A stretch of DNA of 64,000 nucleotides from a bacterium (GCA_023150945.1 JAKLJX010000022.1:28158-92157), one strand, 5' to 3'; counted from the first letter of the stretch, positions 1 through 11,293 are shown. Notes: a model not told the origin generated them from the sequence alone. Numbers and translations are program-made.

Positions 1-3000
1 CAGGAGGCTGCCCTGCTGTTGAGCGACGGCCGCAAGCTGCCGGTCAAGGTGAGGCAGGCTGCAAAGCCGCCTTTGTCTTCTGCGCCGGCCGTGCTGAGCG
101 CTTCGCCGGCGGCCCTCGCGCTGCTGCAGAATCCCCCGCCGTTCGGTGTAGTCGTGCCCCAGGGGCCGCAATGTACCGATGGCGAGGTCCACGATGACAA
201 TACCATCGAAAACGGCTATGGCTGGAATCCCTCGCTGGTCTCGGATGGCCGTACGGTGGAGAGATTCAGCCCCGGGCCGCTGCCCTTCAGCCTTACCAAA
301 ATCTGCATTTCCTGGACGCGCACCGGTGCAGACGCGGATATCAGTTTCAATATTCAGGTCTACGATGATGATGGCGCGGGCGGATCGCCGGGCACGCTGC
401 TGACTTCCATTCCGGTGGCGGCGGCTGGAGTTCCTGTGTGGCCGTCAGCGGCCTTCTATGATTTTGATGTTTCCGGCTTGATTGCGGAAATCAATGACCC
501 GCTGGTCTACATTGGCGCGCAGTGGAATCCGATGACGGAGCCGAATTTCTTCATTTGTGCGGATGAGAGTCCCACGACCCCGCTGCAAACCGGTTACGGC
601 CAGAACGATTATGACGGGTTCGTCTGGACGCCGCTGCAAAGCTACTTCCCGGCCTATCGCGCGATGTTTATCCGCGCAGAGGGCGAAGCTGCATCCGGAT
701 GTCCCTGGTTGAGCGAGAGTTTGACTTCCGGCTCGATTCCGGCGGGCGGCAGCCAGGAGGTGACGGTTTCCGTGAGCGCGGGCACGTTGCTTCCCGGAAC
801 CTACAACTGCAATCTTGTTATCGACAGCAACGATCCTGATGAGCCGCAGGTCACGGTGCCGGTGCAGCTCACCGTTACCCCGCTGGCGCCGCCGGACATC
901 GCCGTGAGTCCCGCTTCTTTTGCCTTTACCGTGATGGAAGAAGGCTCGGACAGCGGAATCATGACGATCACGAACACGGCAGCAGCCGGCGCGGATAACC
1001 TGGATTGGGAGATTGAAGAGCAGGAGGCCGTGCTCATGCTCCGCGACGGCCGGAAATTGCCAGTCACTCTGCAAGCACAGAATCGAGATCCCCGTCTGGC
1101 GGCGCAGCGCCAGGGTGAAAAATCCGGCGGCCGTGTGAATGCCGGCGGCTTCGAGGAGACAACTTCGCAACGCGGCCTAAAAGCGCCGGAGGAGAAATTC
1201 GTCGCAGCGCCGTTTACAACGAACACACTGGTGCTGCAACCCGGCGTGTCGATCGGTAACTCCATCCTCGAGGCTCTGGATCAACTCGGCGTGATGCACG
1301 ATTTTCTCATAACCAGCGACTTCACCACCATCGACTTCAGCCTCTATCAGACTATCATCGTTGGAATGGATGGCGGCGCGATCGAGACCGCCAGCGTGCA
1401 GGCGCTCGCCAATGCCGCCGCCAGCGGCAAAAAACTGGTGATGTATGGCGGCACCAACTACGGGCCGTATTACACCGGCATGAGTGCCTACTTGCTGCAG
1501 CACACCGGCACGCAAGGTTGGACCATCTCGGCACCGCCGCATTTGACCGTTACCAGCCCGGGCGATCCGTTGGCAGCCGGCCTGCCCGCCTCCTATACCT
1601 ACGCTGATGCCGCCGCCGCCTTTTACATGCTGCGCATCAATGATCCGGCGGCCACAGTGGTAGCCATGAATGGCGACGGCCATCCGGCTTTGGTGCGCAA
1701 GAGCATCGGCAGCGGCACGCTGGTCTATTCGATCAGCTCCCCGTTTGACGCCTACTATTCGAATCCGTCGGATTTCGAGATTCTCAAGACCATCGTCAGC
1801 AACGCCATCAACGCCGGTGGCTGCAGTTGGTTGACCGAGAATCCGACGAGCGGATCGACTGCGGCGGGAAGCCAGAATCAGGTCAGCCTCGTGGTCAACA
1901 CCATCGGACTGCAGCCGGGTGAGTATGATTGCAATCTTCTCATCACCAGCAATGATCCCGATGAGCCGGAAGTCACGGTGCCGGTGCATCTCACGGTGGT
2001 ACCGAAGCCGCCGGCAGACATTGACGTTTCGCCCTCTTCGTTCAGCTTCACTCTGCCGGAGGAGGAGGGGGTGGCCGCGGCCACGATGACGATCGCGAAC
2101 ACCGCCCCGGCCGGCCATGATGATCTCGAATGGAGCATCGCCGAGCAGGAGGCTACGCTGGTTTTGAGCAATGGCAGGAAACTCGCGGTCAACCTCGGGC
2201 GGCGCAGCAGCGGGGCGGCAACCCAACCCAACGCGCGGCTGGAGAACTTCAATCCCCATGCCGGCAAATACGACGCGGATTTGCCTCCCGGTCCGCCGGT
2301 AATTCAAGGTGCGGGCGGCCCGGATGGCTTCGGCTATACCTGGATCGACAGCGATGAACCCGGCGGTCCGGCCTTCAATTGGCAGGACATCACCGGTGTG
2401 GGCACGCCGGTGAACTTGTCGGATGATTCCTTCATCGAGGTGGCGTTGCCGTTCACTTTCCCGTTCTATGGCGTTGACAAGTCACTGGTGAAGATTTCTT
2501 CCAACGGATTCCTGGCCTTTGGGCCGAACGGGACGGATCTCAACAACACGCCATTGCCCAACGCGGGCCAGCCGAACGACATCATCGCGGCGTTTTGGGA
2601 TGATCTCGACCCGGGCCTGGGTGGAACGATCCACTACTACCACAACGCCGGCGCGAATGAGTTCATCGTGCAATACACCGGGATTCAGCATTTTGGCGGC
2701 AGCGCGCCTTACACTTTTCAAGCCATTTTGCGGTCAAACGGCAGCATGCTGTTCCAGTATCTTGGGATGCAGGGCCCGGTCAATTCCGCCACGCTGGGTG
2801 TCGAGAACAGCAGCGGCACCATCGGCTTGCAGATCGTCTTCAACGCCAATTATGTGCACGATAACCTGGCGGTGGCGATTCAGGCCGCCTGCCCCTGGAT
2901 CTCCGAAGATCCTGTGAGCGGCGTGATCCCACCGGGCGGCAGCGAGCAAGTGGCGCTATCGGTCAGCACTGCCGGTTTGGCGGCTGGAACCTACAACTGC

Positions 3001-5703
3001 AGTCTCCTGGTCAACAGCAATGATCCGGATGAGTCGCAGATTACAGTTCCGGTCGAGTTGATTGTAATTCCGCTGATTCCACCGGAAATCGAGGTCACGC
3101 CGGCCTCGTTTGCCTTCACGCTGCCCTACGGCGATGCTTCAACGAGCGGCACCATGACGATTTCCAATCTGCTGCCGCCCGGCCCCGGCGCCGATAATCT
3201 GGATTGGAACATAACGGAACAAGAAGCAGCGCTGGTTTTAAGCGACGGCAAGAAGCTGCCGGTCAGTGTGCGTCCGCATGGCAGCGGCTCGCGCAAGTCA
3301 CACCTTTCGCCCAGCCGTGTCGATGGAGGGACTCCGGCCGCCGGATTGCTTTCTGCTTCGCCGAGTCTGAGCTTCAATGGCGCCGGCACTGCCGAGGCGC
3401 CGGTCAATCCCGCCGAGGTGCTCTACGACCAGATGGATTCACCGGGTTTGAACAGTATCACCTCCCAGAACTTCGAAGCTGCAAACGATGCTTTCGATAA
3501 CCAGGCGGCGGATGATTTTGTTGTGCCGGCCAGTGACGGCGCATGGACGATCGAGCGCGTGGAAGTGGCAGGGGTTTATTTCAACGGCACTGGGCCGGTC
3601 GCTTCGGTCAACGTGTGGTTCTATCAGAATGCGGGCAATTTGCCGGGAGCAGAAGTGTACAGCGCCCTCGAAGTTGTTCCGAGCGCGGGCATTGCCAACG
3701 GTTCGTTTGTGATCGATCTGCCGGCGCCGGCGATTCTTACGGCCGGCGCGTACTGGGTTTCGGTACAAGCCAACATGGATTTCACGCCCTTCGGACAGTG
3801 GGGCTGGACCGAACGCACGGTGGCGTCGAGCAATCCATCCGCATGGCGCAATCCCGGCAACGGATTTGGCACACCGTGCACCGACTGGGGCCAGCGCGTG
3901 AGCGCTTGTGGTGTCGGTAGCGATCCGGATCTGTTGTTCCGCTTGAGCGGCATGGTCGGCGGCGGGTGTTTGTGGCTGACGGCGAATCCACTGAGCGGCA
4001 GCATTTCACCGGGCGGCAGCGAAACCGTCGAGGTGACCGTGAGCGCCGCCGGTCTGGCACCGGGCACGTACAACTGCACGCTGATCGTCAATAGCAATGA
4101 CCCGGATGAACCGCAGGTGGCAGTCCCGGTTCAGCTCGATATCGTTGTCGATGCCGTGATCTGGATTCCGGATGACGTGCTCAATCCGGATCTTGCGCGC
4201 AAAGCGACGGAGCGTGGGCTGTCCATTGAAACACTACAGAACTTGTCGGTCGCACCCACCAGCCACTTGGAGTTGAAAGCAGCGCTGGAGGCCAACGGCA
4301 AAGCCGTTCTGATTACCAACACCCTGACGCAGGCGGAGATCGCACAGGCCGATTATCTCTTCGTGGTGGCGGGCATCTATCCCAACAATCACGTGATCAA
4401 AGAGACGGATCCCGAAGCGGCGCTCATTGAGAGCTACCTTGCCGCCGGCGGAAAGGTTTACCTCGAAGGCGGCGACGTGTGGTATTACGACCCCATTAAT
4501 CTCAATGGCCATGATTTCGGTCCGTCCTTCCAGATCAACCCGCTGCGTGACGGCAGCAACAATTTGAAGACGGTGCTGGGTGCATGCCTGGCCGAGGGCA
4601 AGGATTTTACTTACTCCGGAGCGAACAATTTCATCGACCAAATCGCGCCCGTGGGCACGGCATGTACCATCCACTCCAATGACAGCCCGGCCTACACCTG
4701 TGGTGTGGCGAACAGCGGAGCTTACGGCCGCACCCTCGGCAACTCGTTCGGGTTCGGCGGGCTGGATGATTTCAGCATCTCCGGCGTGAGCAAAGCCACC
4801 CTCATGGCCTCGTATCTCGATTTCTTCGACAACGGCATTTCGGTCACTGCGGTGACCTACGACTTTCCGGTGGCCAGCGGCGGCTGGTACCTGATTTCGC
4901 TGCCGGTGATCCCGGATGACAACCGCTTGAGCGTCGTGTTTCCGGAGGCGCTGGCGGCATTCGGCTGGGATTTCGCTTCGCAAAGCTACGTTGCTGCCAC
5001 CCGGCTCCTGCCGGCGCGGGGCTATTGGGTCACCATGCCTTCCGCCACCACGGTGACGGTGACCGGGCAGCCGTTGAATCAATACAGTGAAACCTACACC
5101 GCCTCCGGCTGGGATATGCTGGGCTCGGTGATCACCCGCGCCAGTGTGAACGGCGACCCCCAAGGCAACGTGTTTGCGATGTTTGGCTTCGATCCGATCA
5201 ACGGCGTGTATCACTCGGTTCGCGGGTTCGAACCGAAGCAAGGTTATTGGATCGCAGTTGCAGCCAATGAGAATGAGCCTGTTTTCCTCACCGTGAGCCC
5301 GGGAGCGAACGCTGCCCCAGCGCCCAATCCGGCAGCGATGGAGGCTTTCACCAAGCATCACGGGACTAACCCGCCTGCGCCGCCTGCTTACACGATTGAC
5401 GGCGATCGCATGGTGGCGATACCGAAGGAATATGGCCTGGCGCAGAATTATCCCAACCCGTTCAATCCCGAAACGATGATCGAGTTTCAACTGCCCAAGG
5501 CGGGCAGGGTCAGCTTGAAGATCTACAGCGTCCTCGGCCACGCAATTCGCACGCTCGTCGAAGGCGAAATGCCGGCCGGCCTGCACCGCGTGCAATGGGA
5601 TGGCAAGGATCAATCGGGGCGCGTGGCGGAATCGGGCGTCTATCTGTATCGTCTCACGGCCGGCGATTTTGTGAAAAGCAGGAAGCTCGTCTTGCTCAAG
5701 TAA
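1..5703 (+). CDS. Very large secreted modular protein (5'-partial): repeated BACON-like Ig scaffold with inserted cargo domains (including a nidogen/NIDO-like one), C-terminal FlgD-Ig/T9SS-type-A-like sorting domain
   Basis: Frame is open from base 1 ([15 protein letters not shown], the same motif as the internal repeats), so the true start lies upstream. Four 'CxW...SGxI...GTYNC...[13 protein letters not shown]' units; C-terminus '[13 protein letters not shown]...WDGKDQSG...SGVYLYRL...KLVLLK'. Confidence 0.85.
700..4150 (+). repeat. Four dispersed protein-level repeats of a BACON-like Ig domain half, at ~700, 1822, 2890 and 3967
   Basis: CPWLSE/CSWLTE/CPWISE/CLWLTA starts, each followed by SNDPDE and VPVxL. 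The first three are followed by 'PP(D/E)IxVxPxSFxFT...MTIxN...LxWxIxEQEAxLxLxxG(R/K)KL'. Confidence 0.9.
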
Positions 5704-6307: not shown

Positions 6308-9300
6308 ATGTCGGTTACGAAGAGTATTATCCGAACTTTCATTCTGCTCACGGCTTTGCTTGGCGTCGAAGCTTTCGCGCAGCAGGCACCGGTCGGCAGG
6401 GGGTGGACGATTCCGCTCACGTTCACGCCCAATAATCCCAATGCCAATACTTTCCATTTGGAATTCGGCACGAACTCCAACGCGACGGCCGGCTTCGACA
6501 GCGGGATCGACGAGATTGTCCCGCCGCCGGGGTTTACCTATTACGTTCACTTCGTCGCGCCGCCCCCGACCAACTTTCTTCGCAAGGACTACCGCAGCAC
6601 GGAATCGGCCTCCGAGCAATGGATTGCAGTGCTCTCCAATACGATTACGAATAACATCACCACCACCATCACCTGGAATCCCTCCCAGTTCCCACCGGGT
6701 GACATCGCCGGCACGCTGACGATCAACGGCCAGAACATGCTGACTACCGATACGTTGGTGGTCAACCCCTTCACCACTGCGGTGGTGATTCAATACACCT
6801 CGCCGGTGGTCAATGCGCCCACGGCTGACTTTTCCGGTTCACCGTTGAGTGGGCCGGCGCCGTTGTCGGTTACCTTCACGCCTGCAATCACCGGCTCGGC
6901 TGTGATCGACAGCTTCTCCTGGAGCTTCCCCGGCGGCAGTCCGGAAACGGTCAGCGGCGCAGGGATGCCGGCCCCGGTCAATGTGGTTTACAACACTGCT
7001 GGCACGTTTGACGTGTCGCTGACCGTCACGAACAATGCCGGCACGGACACGGAAACAAAGCCCGGATATGTATCTGTGCCTCCGCCCGGCAATGTGCCTC
7101 CGGTTGCTGACCCTCAGAACGTCTCCACCGATGAGGACATGCCCAAGGACATTACATTGACGGCGACCGATCCGGACGACGGCCCGCAGCCACTCACCTA
7201 CACCATTGTTGACTCACCGCAACACGGCACGTTGACGGGCACACCGCCAAGTGTGACGTATTCACCGGCAGCCGACTATCACGGCTCGGACAGCTTCACC
7301 TTCAAAGCCAACGATGGCGCAGACGACAGCAACATCGCGACGGTGTCGATGACGGTCAATCCGGTGAATGATGCGCCAACAGCGAATCCGCAAAACCTCA
7401 CCACGCTGGAAGACACACCGCTTGCCATCACGCTGACCGCCAACGATGTCGATGGTGATGCGTTGACCTTCGCGATCGTCACCTCTCCGGCGCATGGCAG
7501 CTTGAGCGGCACGCCGCCGAACGTGACTTACACGCCGAACGCCAACTACCACGGCCCGGATTCCTTCACGTTCACGGCAGACGACGGCGTGATCGGCACG
7601 GCAGAAGTCAGCGCGCCTGCCACAGTGTCCATCACGGTAACCCCGGTCAATGATGCGCCAGCAGCAAACCCTCAAAGTGTGACCACGGCGGAAGACATAT
7701 CGGTAGCGATCACGTTGACCGGCTCGGATGTGGAAGGGCAGCCGTTGACGTTCGCTATCGTCACGGGTCCCGCGCACGGCACGTTGAGCGGCACGCCGCC
7801 GAACGTGACTTACACGCCCGCCGCCAACTACTTCGGGCCTGATGCTTTTACGATCAAAGCGAACGACGGCGTTTTGGACAGCGACCCCGCAACGGTTTCG
7901 ATTACGGTTACGCCGGTAAACGACGAGCCGGTGGCGAATCCGCAGAATGTCATCGTGCAGGAGGATACATCGACGCCGATCACATTGACGGGCACAGACG
8001 TAGATGGTGACCCGCTTACCTTCACGATCGTGACCAGCCCGGCCAACGGAACGCTGACGGGAACGCCTCCGAACGTGACCTACACGCCGAATTCAGGCTA
8101 TAACGGGCCGGACGCCTTCACGTTCAAAGTGAATGACGGCCAAGCCGACAGCGCACCGGCCACGGTTTCAATTACGGTGATCGAGCAGAATGACCCGCCC
8201 GTGGCAAATCCGCAAAGCGTCACGACCAGCGAGGACACACCGGTGGCGGTCACGTTGAGCGGGTCTGATCCCGAAGACCAGCCATTGACGTTTGCGATCG
8301 TCACTCCTCCGGCGCACGGCACGCTGAGCGGCACGCCGCCGAACGTGACTTACACGCCTACCGCCAACTACTTCGGGCCTGATGCTTTCACGTTCAAAGT
8401 CAATGACGGTGTTTGGGACAGCGACCCCGCGACGGTTTCCATCACCGTCACGCCGGTCAATGATGCACCCGTGGCCAATGATCAGTCAGTCACTACGCCG
8501 GAAGATACGCCGGTCGCAATCACCTTGACTGCAAGCGATGTCGATAACGATGAACTGACGTTTAGCATCATCACAGCGCCTGCTCACGGCACGCTGAGTG
8601 GAACACCCCCAAACGTGGTTTACACCCCGGCGGCCAACTACTTCGGACCCGATGCCTTTGAGTTTGCGGCAGATGATGGACATGCCAATCCGGCGGCAAG
8701 CGATACGGCCACGGTTTCAATTACGGTTACGCCAGACATCGGAAGGCCCATCGCCAATCCTCAAACCGCATCAACCCCTGAAGATACGCCATTACCCATC
8801 ACGTTGACCGGCTCGGATGAGGAAGGCGATCCTCTCACCTTCGCGATTGTCACCTCCCCGGCGCACGGCACGCTCAGCGGTACACCGCCAAACGTGACCT
8901 ATGCGCCCGCAGCCAATTTCTTCGGGCCTGATTCTTTTACCTTCAAAGTCAATGATGGTGTTTTGGACAGCGACCCCGCCACGGTTTCCATCACCGTCAC
9001 ACCGGTCAATGATGCGCCGGTGGCCAACGATCAGAGTGTAACCACCTTTCTCGATTTACCGGTGGCGATTACTCTCACGGCCAGCGATGTTGAAAATGAC
9101 CCGCTGACTTTCATGATAGTAACCGGCCCGGCGCACGGTACGCTGAGCGGCACGCCGCCGAACGTGACCTACACGCCGAGTACCGGCTTCACGGGCAATG
9201 ATGCTTTCACATTTTTGGCCAACGACGGCCAATTGAACAGCAACACGGCGACGGTTACGATTACTGTGGATGAGGAACCTGTAGCTCCGCCGCTTGCAGG

Positions 9301-11293
9301 TTTCTTTGGCACGCCTCTGCTCGGCGTGACGCCGCTCACCGTGCAGTTCACCGACACCTCCACCGGCCTCATCACAAGCTGGCTGTGGGATTTCGGCGAC
9401 GGCCACACCAGCACCGAGCAGAATCCGCAGCACACTTATGATGTGCAGGTCGATCCCAAATTCACCGTCAGTCTCACCGTCACCGGCCCGGGCGGCAGTG
9501 ACACCGAGACCAAGGTGAATTACATTGAAGTGTTGCTCGCCCTCGAGGTCAATATCGAGGCAGCGCCGGCCTCCGGTCTGGCGCCCCTCGCGGTGGCGTT
9601 CAGCAGCTCTTCCAATCTTCCGATATCGAGCTATTCCTGGAATTTCGGCGACGGTGGCGCCAGCACCGACGCGCATCCTGCGCACACTTACCTCCAGCCC
9701 GGGGCGTACACCGTGACGCTGGTCACCGAAACGCCGCTAGGCCGCATCACCACCAGAAAAGTCAACTTTGTGCAGGTCTTCGACTGCTTCACCAAGGCAC
9801 CGCTGAGCCTGGTCTCGGGCAGTCCCACTTATCCCGGCGAAGGTTGGGATAATGCCATCGACGGGGACGTGGATGGCTGGAACGGGACCGTTACTGCGGA
9901 CGGCAACCCGCCGCAAGCCGTCTTCGGCTTTAGCGACGGCAACGCCCGCATGATCGACCGGGTGCGCCTGTTGACCGACACCAACGTGCTTTTCTCCAGC
10001 CGCTGGGTGAAGGAGTTCCGCGTGCTGGTCTCGACCACCGGCACTGCTGATAGCGACTTCAGCGAAGTGTTGGCCGGCGTCAAGACCGGCGGGGCGTGGG
10101 AAGATTTCACTTTTCCCGCGGCCGGCGCCAAGTTCGTCAAACTCGTGATCGACAAACCGGCCGCAGGATTCCGGCAGTTGGGTGAATTCGAGGTCTGGGA
10201 AGCGCTGGATGCAAATCCGCCCGACACTACCCTCTCGAGCATTGCGGTCAGCAGTCCGCACGTTGCCGACGGCGAGGACGCCGCCACGATCACCATCGTC
10301 CTGCGCGACGCCAGCGGCGCGGCGATCACCGGCAAGCCCTCGATTGCCTTCAAGCTGTTTGTCAGCGGCGCGCAGAACAGTGTCAGCGCAGTGACCGAAA
10401 CGACGATTCCGGGAACCTATCAGGCCACGCTCACTTCGCTGACCGCAGAAGTGAAAACCGTTTCAGTGTTGCTGGGCTGCACGCGCCTCAACAAGACGCC
10501 GGCAGGTGAGTTGGCAAGCACGACGTTTGTGCCCATCCCGGTCCAACTCGCCAGCCTGGTGTTCGTGCAGGGCGCCGAGGCGTATCCTGGCGAAGGCTGG
10601 GACAATGCGATTGACGGTGACGTCGAGGATTGGGACGGCACCACAACAATCAGCGGCACGCCCGCGTTTGGCGTGTTCTCCTTCGCCGGCGGGGCCACCG
10701 AGAAGGTCGCAGCCGTGCGCCTGCTAACCGACACCGGCGTGGGCTTCGGGTCGCGCTGGGTGCGGAAGTTCAGGATTCTGGTTTCCACCTCCGGCACGGC
10801 AGCGGGCAATTTCACGGAAGTGCTGCAGGGTGAGCTGAGCGGTGGCGGCTGGCAGGAATTCAGTATGACGCCGGTGTCGGCCAAGTACGTCAAACTGCAG
10901 ATCGACACGCCTGCCTCTGGTTTCCGGCAACTGGGAGAATTCGAAGTCCATGTCACCGGCAGCGGGCTGGCGAAGAGTGCAGCGGCTGAGCAGGTAGAGG
11001 AGGCGGGCCTGCCAATCGAATTCGCCCTGTCGCAGAACTATCCCAACCCCTTCAATCCAGAAACCGTGATTCGCATTGAATTGCCGGCTTCCGTCCCCAC
11101 GCGGCTGGATTTGTATGACCTGCAAGGACGCCTCGTCCGTCGCCTGGTTGACAAGCAGATGACTGCCGGTGTGCACAATCTCAAATGGGATGGCACCGAT
11201 GAGCAGGGCCGGCGCGTCAGCAGCGGCATCTATTGCTATCGTCTGCAGGCAGGTTCGTTCGTGCAGATCAAGCGCATGACGCTGCTCAAGTAG
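6308..11293 (+). CDS. Large secreted adhesin-like protein: signal peptide, PKD, 8 cadherin-like/tandem-95 (Big_9-type) repeats, 2 PKD, 2 discoidin (F5/8 type C-like) domains flanking an invasin-like Ig, CTD
   Basis: SD AAGGAGG before ATG; hydrophobic N-terminus ending AFA-QQ; NDAPVANxQ...HGTLSGTPPNVTYTP...D(A/S)FTF repeats; WDFGDG PKD motifs; paired GEGWDNAIDGD...GFRQLGEFEV; [12 protein letters not shown]. Confidence 0.88.
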   Translation: MSVTKSIIRTFILLTALLGVEAFAQQAPVGRGWTIPLTFTPNNPNANTFHLEFGTNSNATAGFDSGIDEIVPPPGFTYYVHFVAPPPTNFLRKDYRSTESASEQWIAVLSNTITNNITTTITWNPSQFPPGDIAGTLTINGQNMLTTDTLVVNPFTTAVVIQYTSPVVNAPTADFSGSPLSGPAPLSVTFTPAITGSAVIDSFSWSFPGGSPETVSGAGMPAPVNVVYNTAGTFDVSLTVTNNAGTDTETKPGYVSVPPPGNVPPVADPQNVSTDEDMPKDITLTATDPDDGPQPLTYTIVDSPQHGTLTGTPPSVTYSPAADYHGSDSFTFKANDGADDSNIATVSMTVNPVNDAPTANPQNLTTLEDTPLAITLTANDVDGDALTFAIVTSPAHGSLSGTPPNVTYTPNANYHGPDSFTFTADDGVIGTAEVSAPATVSITVTPVNDAPAANPQSVTTAEDISVAITLTGSDVEGQPLTFAIVTGPAHGTLSGTPPNVTYTPAANYFGPDAFTIKANDGVLDSDPATVSITVTPVNDEPVANPQNVIVQEDTSTPITLTGTDVDGDPLTFTIVTSPANGTLTGTPPNVTYTPNSGYNGPDAFTFKVNDGQADSAPATVSITVIEQNDPPVANPQSVTTSEDTPVAVTLSGSDPEDQPLTFAIVTPPAHGTLSGTPPNVTYTPTANYFGPDAFTFKVNDGVWDSDPATVSITVTPVNDAPVANDQSVTTPEDTPVAITLTASDVDNDELTFSIITAPAHGTLSGTPPNVVYTPAANYFGPDAFEFAADDGHANPAASDTATVSITVTPDIGRPIANPQTASTPEDTPLPITLTGSDEEGDPLTFAIVTSPAHGTLSGTPPNVTYAPAANFFGPDSFTFKVNDGVLDSDPATVSITVTPVNDAPVANDQSVTTFLDLPVAITLTASDVENDPLTFMIVTGPAHGTLSGTPPNVTYTPSTGFTGNDAFTFLANDGQLNSNTATVTITVDEEPVAPPLAGFFGTPLLGVTPLTVQFTDTSTGLITSWLWDFGDGHTSTEQNPQHTYDVQVDPKFTVSLTVTGPGGSDTETKVNYIEVLLALEVNIEAAPASGLAPLAVAFSSSSNLPISSYSWNFGDGGASTDAHPAHTYLQPGAYTVTLVTETPLGRITTRKVNFVQVFDCFTKAPLSLVSGSPTYPGEGWDNAIDGDVDGWNGTVTADGNPPQAVFGFSDGNARMIDRVRLLTDTNVLFSSRWVKEFRVLVSTTGTADSDFSEVLAGVKTGGAWEDFTFPAAGAKFVKLVIDKPAAGFRQLGEFEVWEALDANPPDTTLSSIAVSSPHVADGEDAATITIVLRDASGAAITGKPSIAFKLFVSGAQNSVSAVTETTIPGTYQATLTSLTAEVKTVSVLLGCTRLNKTPAGELASTTFVPIPVQLASLVFVQGAEAYPGEGWDNAIDGDVEDWDGTTTISGTPAFGVFSFAGGATEKVAAVRLLTDTGVGFGSRWVRKFRILVSTSGTAAGNFTEVLQGELSGGGWQEFSMTPVSAKYVKLQIDTPASGFRQLGEFEVHVTGSGLAKSAAAEQVEEAGLPIEFALSQNYPNPFNPETVIRIELPASVPTRLDLYDLQGRLVRRLVDKQMTAGVHNLKWDGTDEQGRRVSSGIYCYRLQAGSFVQIKRMTLLK
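7091..9270 (+). repeat. Eight tandem ~90-aa cadherin-like repeats with long stretches of high DNA identity
   Basis: The segment gcgcacggcacg(t/c)tgagcggcacgccgccgaacgtgacttacacgcc recurs at ~7772 and ~8312, with close variants at ~7490, ~8862 and ~9131. Confidence 0.92.

Follow-up and report, generated by a model that had tools for sequence, protein, structure and literature searches.

How should a repeat be understood in which profiles of immunoglobulin-like (Ig) domains match only one half at a time? The question is raised by a gene at the start of a 64,000-nt stretch of bacterial DNA (GCA_023150945.1, JAKLJX010000022.1:28158-92157, or C35:28158-92157 in our contig labels), which is referred to below as the window. 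The reading frame is open from the first base of the window and its ATG lies 2.6 kb upstream, at C35:25533, which gives a protein of 2775 aa. From the N- to the C-terminus it consists of a signal peptide, a Peptidase_S8_N propeptide, an S8 peptidase domain, five repeat units, a region of ~430 aa and a type IX secretion system (T9SS) sorting domain; the portion encoded upstream of the window runs from the signal peptide through unit 1, whose cargo is NIDO, to the end of unit 2's first half. A sequence-only reading of the window had proposed that each unit is an Ig domain interrupted at a fixed point by an interchangeable cargo domain, and that the units form a display stalk. Structural and comparative evidence shows that each Ig is indeed one discontinuous domain, of the HYDIN/VesB/choice-of-anchor-D (PapD-like) type, which is cut between strands C and C', while a binding role of the cargos is suggested by analogy only.

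One Ig domain built from two halves

In every unit, strands A, A', B and C are followed by an EQEA..GRKLPV extension, a disordered linker of 20-60 aa and a domain of ~200 aa, after which the chain runs through strands C', E, F and G. The insertion site is thus flanked by strand C (LxWxI) and strand C' (CxWL). From the cargo the chain passes directly into strand C', and a long linker is present on the entry side only. Consecutive Igs are joined by short Pro-rich linkers, with 3-6 residues between a second half and the next first half. The first halves are homologous among the units, and so are the second halves (tblastn E = 1e-11 to 1e-24 between copies), and direct DNA repeats are spaced 1020-1125 nt apart in the gene. 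The positions that had been read from the sequence for the EQEA..G(R/K)KL motif (nt 1, where the window starts inside the motif, 1018, 2143 and 3217) and for the second-half cysteines (nt 700, 1822, 2890 and 3967) are exact. The count of four units has to be raised to five, since unit 1 falls outside the window; likewise, the unit at nt 1 is unit 2, whose own first half is upstream.

The profile matches are those expected of an interrupted domain. PF22544 reaches 50.1 bits (cut-off 25.5) and NF012200 49.5 bits (cut-off 45), and each covers half of its profile because 230-270 aa interrupt the domain. PF22544 aligns with second halves only (profile positions 39/46-98), and 19 other copies in the host genome match its positions 1-100. 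The complementary part is found by NF012200 (choice_anch_D), in which protein residues 1160-1209, the first half of unit 3, correspond to positions 2-51 of 108. When cargo 3 was spliced out in silico, the BACON_2 match of 15 bits at positions 42-76 became one of 26 bits at positions 2-76 of 94. In addition, the host genome encodes intact, contiguous copies of the same domain, such as the four in tandem in a protein on contig C32 ('...LNWSLVADQPWLRANPQSG...').

The arrangement of the units points in the same direction. The first half of unit 1 directly follows the protease, and an unrelated domain comes after the second half of unit 5. Furthermore, the host genome encodes single-unit proteins without neighboring halves (the upstream paralogue and the product of C54:30976-35007), and for 121 of the 131 NIDO units in homologues no first half could be detected immediately behind the second half; the hidden Markov model (HMM) used was narrow, so that its detections are lower bounds.

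The pairing was also addressed by AlphaFold2 (AF2) constructs in which halves compete for partners, with strand lengths assigned by DSSP and the predicted local distance difference test (pLDDT) as the readout. Model 1 contained the second half of unit 3, the whole of unit 4 and the first half of unit 5 (49-row alignment, pLDDT 87.3), and model 2 contained unit 3 and the first half of unit 4 (18 rows, pLDDT 79). In model 1, the second half of unit 4 forms strands at 365-368, 371-374, 379-387, 394-404 and 411-421, and the two orphan halves are degenerate (strand E of second half 3 at 27-30, strand B of first half 5 at 451-454). In model 2, where its own first half is present, second half 3 has strands at 318-321, 324-327, 332-340, 347-357 and 364-374; first half 3 itself has strands at 7-10, 14-19, 23-32 and 41-48 with a pLDDT of ~92, and first half 4, which lacks its partner, collapses to strands at 381-384 and 404-407 and has a lower pLDDT. 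The presence of first half 3 therefore lengthens strand E of second half 3 from 4 to 9 aa, and that of second half 4 lengthens strand B of first half 4 from 4 to 10 aa. As a half attains its full length only with its own partner across the cargo, the pairing is nested and not contiguous.

Structure searches agree with this assignment. Foldseek matched the HYDIN PapD-like domain 2e6j with a probability of 1.0 and the CEP192 ASH domain 6fvi with 0.96, and it also returned HYDIN and ciliary central-apparatus Ig proteins as well as 6x5v and 9y9w, which are split-domain entries of RTX adhesins. In the models, both halves are thus predicted to build a single PapD-like β-sandwich. The idea that the halves are separate, complete domains was rejected on the profile, intact-copy, architecture and AF2 evidence, and the part of the sequence-only reading that treats them as one domain stands.

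Cargo domains and their separable histories

The inserts of the studied protein, 230-270 aa each, comprise the linker and a domain of ~200 aa. From unit 1 to unit 5 the cargos are a NIDO domain, an unannotated β domain (JR1), a class-I glutamine amidotransferase (GATase1)-like domain (GAT), a second NIDO domain and a DUF7901-like domain (JR2). They are shown to be unrelated, independently folding domains, with the two NIDO cargos being 72% identical to each other; as had been noticed from the sequence, the four within the window share no similarity detectable by blastp or phmmer.

The nidogen-like character noticed in one cargo of the window has a partial profile match behind it. Cargos 1 and 4 match NIDO (PF06119) with 28.7 and 26.6 bits (cut-off 25), in alignments limited to positions 2-53 of 186, and no NIDO structure was among the top 50 Foldseek matches of the multidomain models. 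Cargo 3 resembles 2gk3, 3fij and 3soz with a Foldseek probability of 1.0 and target-normalized TM-scores of 0.55-0.62 (0.62 for 2gk3), and a probability of 1.0 was also obtained for chains of GH42 and GH164 enzymes, presumably through their non-catalytic domains. It has the GATase1 fold but not the Cys-His-Glu triad; an active amidotransferase was considered and rejected, since cargo 3 contains no cysteine and hence lacks the GATase nucleophile. No Pfam or NCBIfam model matches the family of cargo 2, which has 545 cluster representatives (at 50% identity). Its members typically occupy residues ~40-220 of secreted proteins of 200-600 aa, together with IPTL-CTERM or T9SS anchors, P-domains, CARDB or DUF11. 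Most of them stand alone directly behind a signal peptide, so that the domain is autonomous and in most cases un-nested. For cargo 5, a sequence search of the PDB was empty, and members of the same cluster carry a precomputed PF25470 hit.

The split-Ig arrangement is general and not peculiar to this gene. The best 120 of 270 homologues contain 211 split units, with inserts of 160-420 aa, and 22 intact domains; both counts are lower bounds because the first-half HMM, built from five sequences, is narrow. S8 peptidases and 'choice-of-anchor D' proteins make up most of these homologues, which belong to Eisenbacteria, Krumholzibacteria, Zixibacteria, Acidobacteriota, Cloacimonadota and Bacillota, including the cultured Limnochorda pilosa. 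On its second-half side, the break is confined to 0-5 profile positions in nearly all of their split units. The inserts form at least 25 sequence clusters (NIDO with 133 members, GATase-like with 17, and many small ones), and the families recur mainly in S8, C25 and M4 peptidases. In addition, a pattern scan of the GTDB species-representative genomes found at least 595 loci encoding a NIDO unit in more than a dozen phyla, among them Calditrichota, Ignavibacteria, Bacteroidota, Rhodothermia, Planctomycetota, Anaerolineae, Dormibacterota and Clostridia. The host genome itself offers a further case in C54:30976-35007, which encodes a T9SS protein of 1343 aa with three N-terminal jelly-roll domains ending in 'DDWF.DD.RL' and one split Ig with a NIDO cargo. 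This protein shows that the split unit also occurs outside proteases in the same genome.

Host and cargo are shown to have separable evolutionary histories, and the clearest case is provided by a 59% identical homologue, P0002 (L083:6001-12267). It is likewise preceded by an S8 paralogue and is therefore regarded as the positional orthologue. P0002 has three units in the order GAT-JR1-JR2, in comparison with NIDO-JR1-GAT-NIDO-JR2 in the studied gene, so that neither the number nor the order of the units is invariant between orthologues. Although their three cargos are unrelated, the host domains of P0002 share 76-83% identity with one another, but only 53-64% with any host of the studied gene, whereas orthologous cargos share 65-68%. 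Moreover, units 1 and 2, whose cargos differ, have a perfect direct repeat of 71 nt in common in their first halves (gene positions 1477 and 2584). From these repeats, recent intragenic gene conversion between host halves is apparent in P0002. This conversion around unrelated cargos means that the histories of host and cargo are decoupled in the family.

In the studied gene, identity among the repeats is 60-78% and no exact repeat is longer than 18 nt, hence no ongoing recombination is visible there. The proposal that the conserved flanks act as recombination anchors accordingly finds its evidence in P0002, with its long repeat and near-identical hosts, and not in the gene for which it was made. 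A FastTree phylogeny of 233 spliced host domains is too star-like to tell cargo swapping from concerted evolution. Within the genus, genome G001 has an orthologue that is 91-92% identical and colinear where assembled. It is spread over two contigs (the end of C34 and the start of C205), with query residues 675-1259 missing and the break inside the repeats, which is probably an assembly artifact caused by the repeats. Three other genomes of the genus lack the orthologue.

Secretion, proposed function and alternatives

The protease part of the protein scores 181.5 bits for Peptidase_S8 (PF00082) and 72 bits for Peptidase_S8_N in the Pfam profile scan, and the D, H and S motifs can be read in the sequence as DLDTG, HGTHTAG and GTSMACPH. 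The protein is therefore taken as an S8 subtilase with an apparently intact catalytic domain. The protein is also a T9SS type A cargo, as its sorting domain scores above the cut-off and the machinery is encoded in the genome: the PorU sortase matches NF033707 with 887 bits (cut-off 420), and at least 50 further open reading frames (ORFs) carry a sorting domain. The coordinates of all features in the window are given in the table.

Table. Features of the split-Ig protease gene within the window (nt positions; pLDDT and residue numbers of models refer to the AF2 constructs)
Feature	Position	Strand	Basis
C-terminal 1900 aa (stop included) of the 2775-aa ORF	1..5703	+	ORF translation
Unit 2, end of EQEA..GRKLPV motif (strand C extension and putative hairpin)	1..45	+	
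Unit 2, basic P/A/S-rich linker and cargo 2 (β-rich, core ~nt 148-690)	46..690	+	no Pfam match
Unit 2, second half of Ig (strands C' to G; Cys nt 700)	691..885	+	half-profile matches
Unit 3, first half of Ig (strands A, A', B, C)	880..1014	+	NF012200; AF2
Unit 3, EQEA motif and disordered, net-basic linker	1015..1215	+	AF2 50-112, pLDDT ~30; K+R 11, D+E 7
Unit 3, cargo, α/β, class-I glutamine-amidotransferase-like fold, no Cys	1216..1815	+	AF2 pLDDT 85-96; Foldseek
Unit 3, second half of Ig (Cys nt 1822)	1816..2007	+	all strands only with first half 3 in construct
Unit 4, first half of Ig and EQEA motif	2008..2187	+	AF2 strands 72-75, 79-84, 89-98, 107-120
Unit 4, disordered linker and NIDO-like cargo	2188..2886	+	PF06119 26.6 bits; AF2 pLDDT 87-98
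Unit 4, second half of Ig (Cys nt 2890)	2887..3075	+	
Unit 5, first half of Ig and EQEA motif	3076..3264	+	
Unit 5, basic S/G/P-rich linker and cargo 5 (β-rich)	3265..3957	+	weak DUF7901 match, PF25470 E = 0.026
Unit 5, second half of Ig (Cys nt 3967)	3958..4149	+	PF22544: residues 1324-1378 = positions 47-98 of 100
C-terminal region, not nested, common to the upstream paralogue and P0002	4150..5445	+	
T9SS type A sorting domain	5446..5700	+	TIGR04183 35.6 bits (cut-off 23); FlgD_ig/Por_Secre_tail match

The gene has relatives on its 5' side, where S8 paralogues with sorting domains form a tandem array (C35:2454-25472). Their S8 domains, at C35:2454, 15399 and 20193, are 61-82% identical to that of the studied protein. 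The nearest one (C35:20127-25472) contains an FN3-like segment, two C-terminal 'DAVIWIP...' domains, a PKD domain and one split Ig with a GATase-like cargo. The next gene on the 3' side (window 6308-11293, + strand) encodes a T9SS protein of 1661 aa in which, by eye, about ten tandem repeats of ~95 aa, PKD-like segments and two discoidin-like domains can be recognized; the repeat consensus is '...VNDAPVANPQSVTT.EDT...LTFAIVT.PAHGTLSGTPPNVTYTP...'.

With respect to function, it is considered probable that the gene encodes a secreted S8 peptidase with a T9SS domain in which a stalk of five split Igs, carrying nested autonomous modules, lies between the protease and the C-terminal anchor. Following export by the T9SS, the sorting domain would be removed and the protein would become attached to the surface by its C-terminus. 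The five-Ig stalk, which looks rigid, may then carry the protease at its distal end, clear of the cell surface, and may project the five accessory modules sideways. By analogy with the split domains of RTX adhesins, these modules would most likely bind substrates, ligands or surfaces, or mediate oligomerization, and would thereby target or tether the protease.

Several points weigh against this picture. The NIDO match is partial, and three of the cargos have no functional annotation. The pairing of the halves was deduced from strand lengths and pLDDT in models rather than from contacts between them. In addition, surface attachment is assumed from the biology of Bacteroidota, and the organism is an uncultured member of another lineage. 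Finally, the narrow first-half HMM makes lower bounds of the split and intact counts.

The foremost alternative, which appears unlikely, is that the cargos are not binding modules but regulatory or enzymatic parts of the protease, such as intramolecular chaperones or inhibitors, or oligomerization domains that build a surface lattice. The closest structures to cargo 3 include GH42 and GH164 enzyme chains, and the GATase1-like domain of GH42 mediates trimerization. The lack of any cysteine in cargo 3 and the recurrence of the same families mainly in S8, C25 and M4 peptidases are also compatible with such roles. However, these families also accompany partners other than proteases and form stand-alone surface proteins that have a variety of anchors, and the presence of at least 25 unrelated families at one site favors a generic display role over a single regulatory one.

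A more far-reaching interpretation takes the C-C' loop of PapD-like Igs as a general insertion platform for separable cassettes, in which gene conversion homogenizes the hosts and can exchange the cargos, and in which the EQEA linker is perhaps cleaved and the fragments are held by the shared sandwiches. Taken as a whole, this remains a rather doubtful proposition.

The sequence-only reading had suggested that the basic linker could be a site of proteolytic maturation. Cleavage is also the essence of the polyprotein model, in which the S8 domain of the protein itself, or some other protease, cuts the linkers and half-domain complementation holds the pieces together. The products would be fragments of the type [cargo n + second half n + first half n+1], chained non-covalently so that each sandwich is shared by two of them, and the outcome might resemble the processed, still-associated gingipain-adhesin complexes. 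The topology permits this, as there is one long linker per unit, on the entry side. The linkers are disordered in AF2 (pLDDT ~30-40; residues 127-144 in model 1 and 50-112 in model 2) and, as the sequence-only reading had noted, basic and of low complexity: K+R exceeds D+E in five of five, they are rich in P, G, S and A, and the R/K clusters sit right behind the conserved motif. Furthermore, the S8 domain is apparently intact and the protein is a T9SS cargo like RgpA and Kgp. Against this, subtilisins typically show no preference for Arg or Lys at P1. EQEA..GRKLPV is a lineage-specific extension of strand C. The EQEA..G.KL motif is restricted to four proteins (the studied one, P0002, P0060 and P0061), where it accompanies all four cargo types, and the split units are general; cleavage therefore cannot be the general reason for the architecture. 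We consider processing of this kind decidedly improbable. Each second half of the studied protein contains a cysteine pair that probably forms a stabilizing disulfide, as had been suggested. Among 513 second halves, both cysteines are present in 15 and neither in 497, with a single one in the remaining copy, so that 512 of the 513 are consistent with the proposal.

Circular permutation, in which second half n and first half n+1 form a contiguous Ig and the cargos are beads on a string, was rejected as highly improbable: although the two halves adjoin, with 3-6 residues between them, and both orphans in model 1 keep a pLDDT of 85-94, such pairing leaves first half 1, second half 5 and the halves of single-unit proteins partnerless, the AF2 competition yielded a complete first half across the cargo (pLDDT ~92, strand B of 10 aa) and a degenerate one contiguously downstream (strand B of 4 aa, pLDDT 67-88), intact homologues run from first half to second half, and in an Ig topology a 5-residue Pro-rich linker is too short to connect the end of strand G with the beginning of strand A.

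Relation to known nested and split domains

The nested stalk favored here has its closest counterpart in the RTX adhesins of the type I secretion system (T1SS). Split Ig-like domains with budding ligand-binding domains have been published for these proteins since 2017, including the work of Graham et al. (2024, Proteins 92:933) as cited in PMC12077191. In both cases, a discontinuous Ig-like sandwich lets an autonomous domain bud out, after which the chain returns to complete the sandwich, and several such units with different inserted domains follow one another along a single fibrillar surface protein. Sequence tools detect only fragments of the host domain in both.

The two systems differ in several respects. 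The host Ig is PapD-like of the HYDIN/VesB/choice-of-anchor-D type here and BIg-like there, and the split lies in the middle of the domain, with four strands followed by five, whereas the first piece of the adhesin FrhA consists of one strand (PMC10865825). Over the full length of the studied protein, Pfam and NCBIfam scans detected no RTX repeats, no calcium-binding extender domains and no BIg match; a T9SS sorting domain and an S8 domain were found instead, where the adhesins use the T1SS. The studied protein is a protease and not a pure adhesin, its five split units are arranged back to back without plain extenders, and its entry linker is long and disordered. Going by its sequence, which also lacks a T1SS signal, it is not a member of the RTX-adhesin family.

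A nested binding domain is also known from RrgA, a tip adhesin of Gram-positive pili, in which a CnaB-type Ig domain harbors an inserted vWFA domain. RrgA thus shares with the studied protein a binding domain nested in an Ig-like stalk domain of a surface protein. It differs in its Ig family, in its sortase/LPXTG anchor, in having one nested module and in using isopeptide bonds, as opposed to the putative disulfide here. The gingipains RgpA and Kgp of Porphyromonas gingivalis are comparable in another way, as they are T9SS proteases with a long C-terminal non-catalytic array and a sorting domain that is removed by PorU (reviewed in PMC5445135 and PMC10202324). They are, however, C25 cysteine proteases and not S8 peptidases, and their cleaved-adhesin domains are sequential and not nested in Igs. 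Their processing is documented, whereas for the studied protein it is only a possibility.

Recognition of the split-Ig unit has practical consequences. At present, profile tools annotate orphan halves and 'unknown' stretches in thousands of large secreted proteins from uncultured FCB-group bacteria, Acidobacteriota, Bacillota and others. Once the unit is recognized, the domain boundaries can be set correctly and the inserts flagged as candidate functional modules that bind ligands or substrates, as in the RTX adhesins. The split-domain principle would then reach beyond the T1SS adhesins to another Ig family, secretion system and protease context, which suggests convergent use of Ig loops for sideways display. 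In addition, a scaffold of ~100 aa that accepts at least 25 unrelated inserts of ~250 aa at one loop, and five in a row, could serve as a template for domain-insertion designs.

The host domain itself belongs to the choice-of-anchor D family (NF012200/PF22544), intact copies of which are present in the host genome and in homologous proteins. This family is annotated as a contiguous domain of ~100 aa, whereas here it is interrupted by 230-270 aa. No description of split PapD-like/choice-of-anchor-D Igs in T9SS proteases or cargo, or of bacterial NIDO insertions, was found in searches of the open literature. To conclude, the concept of the split domain is already established elsewhere, and what differs here is the Ig family, the split point, the secretion system and the protease context.

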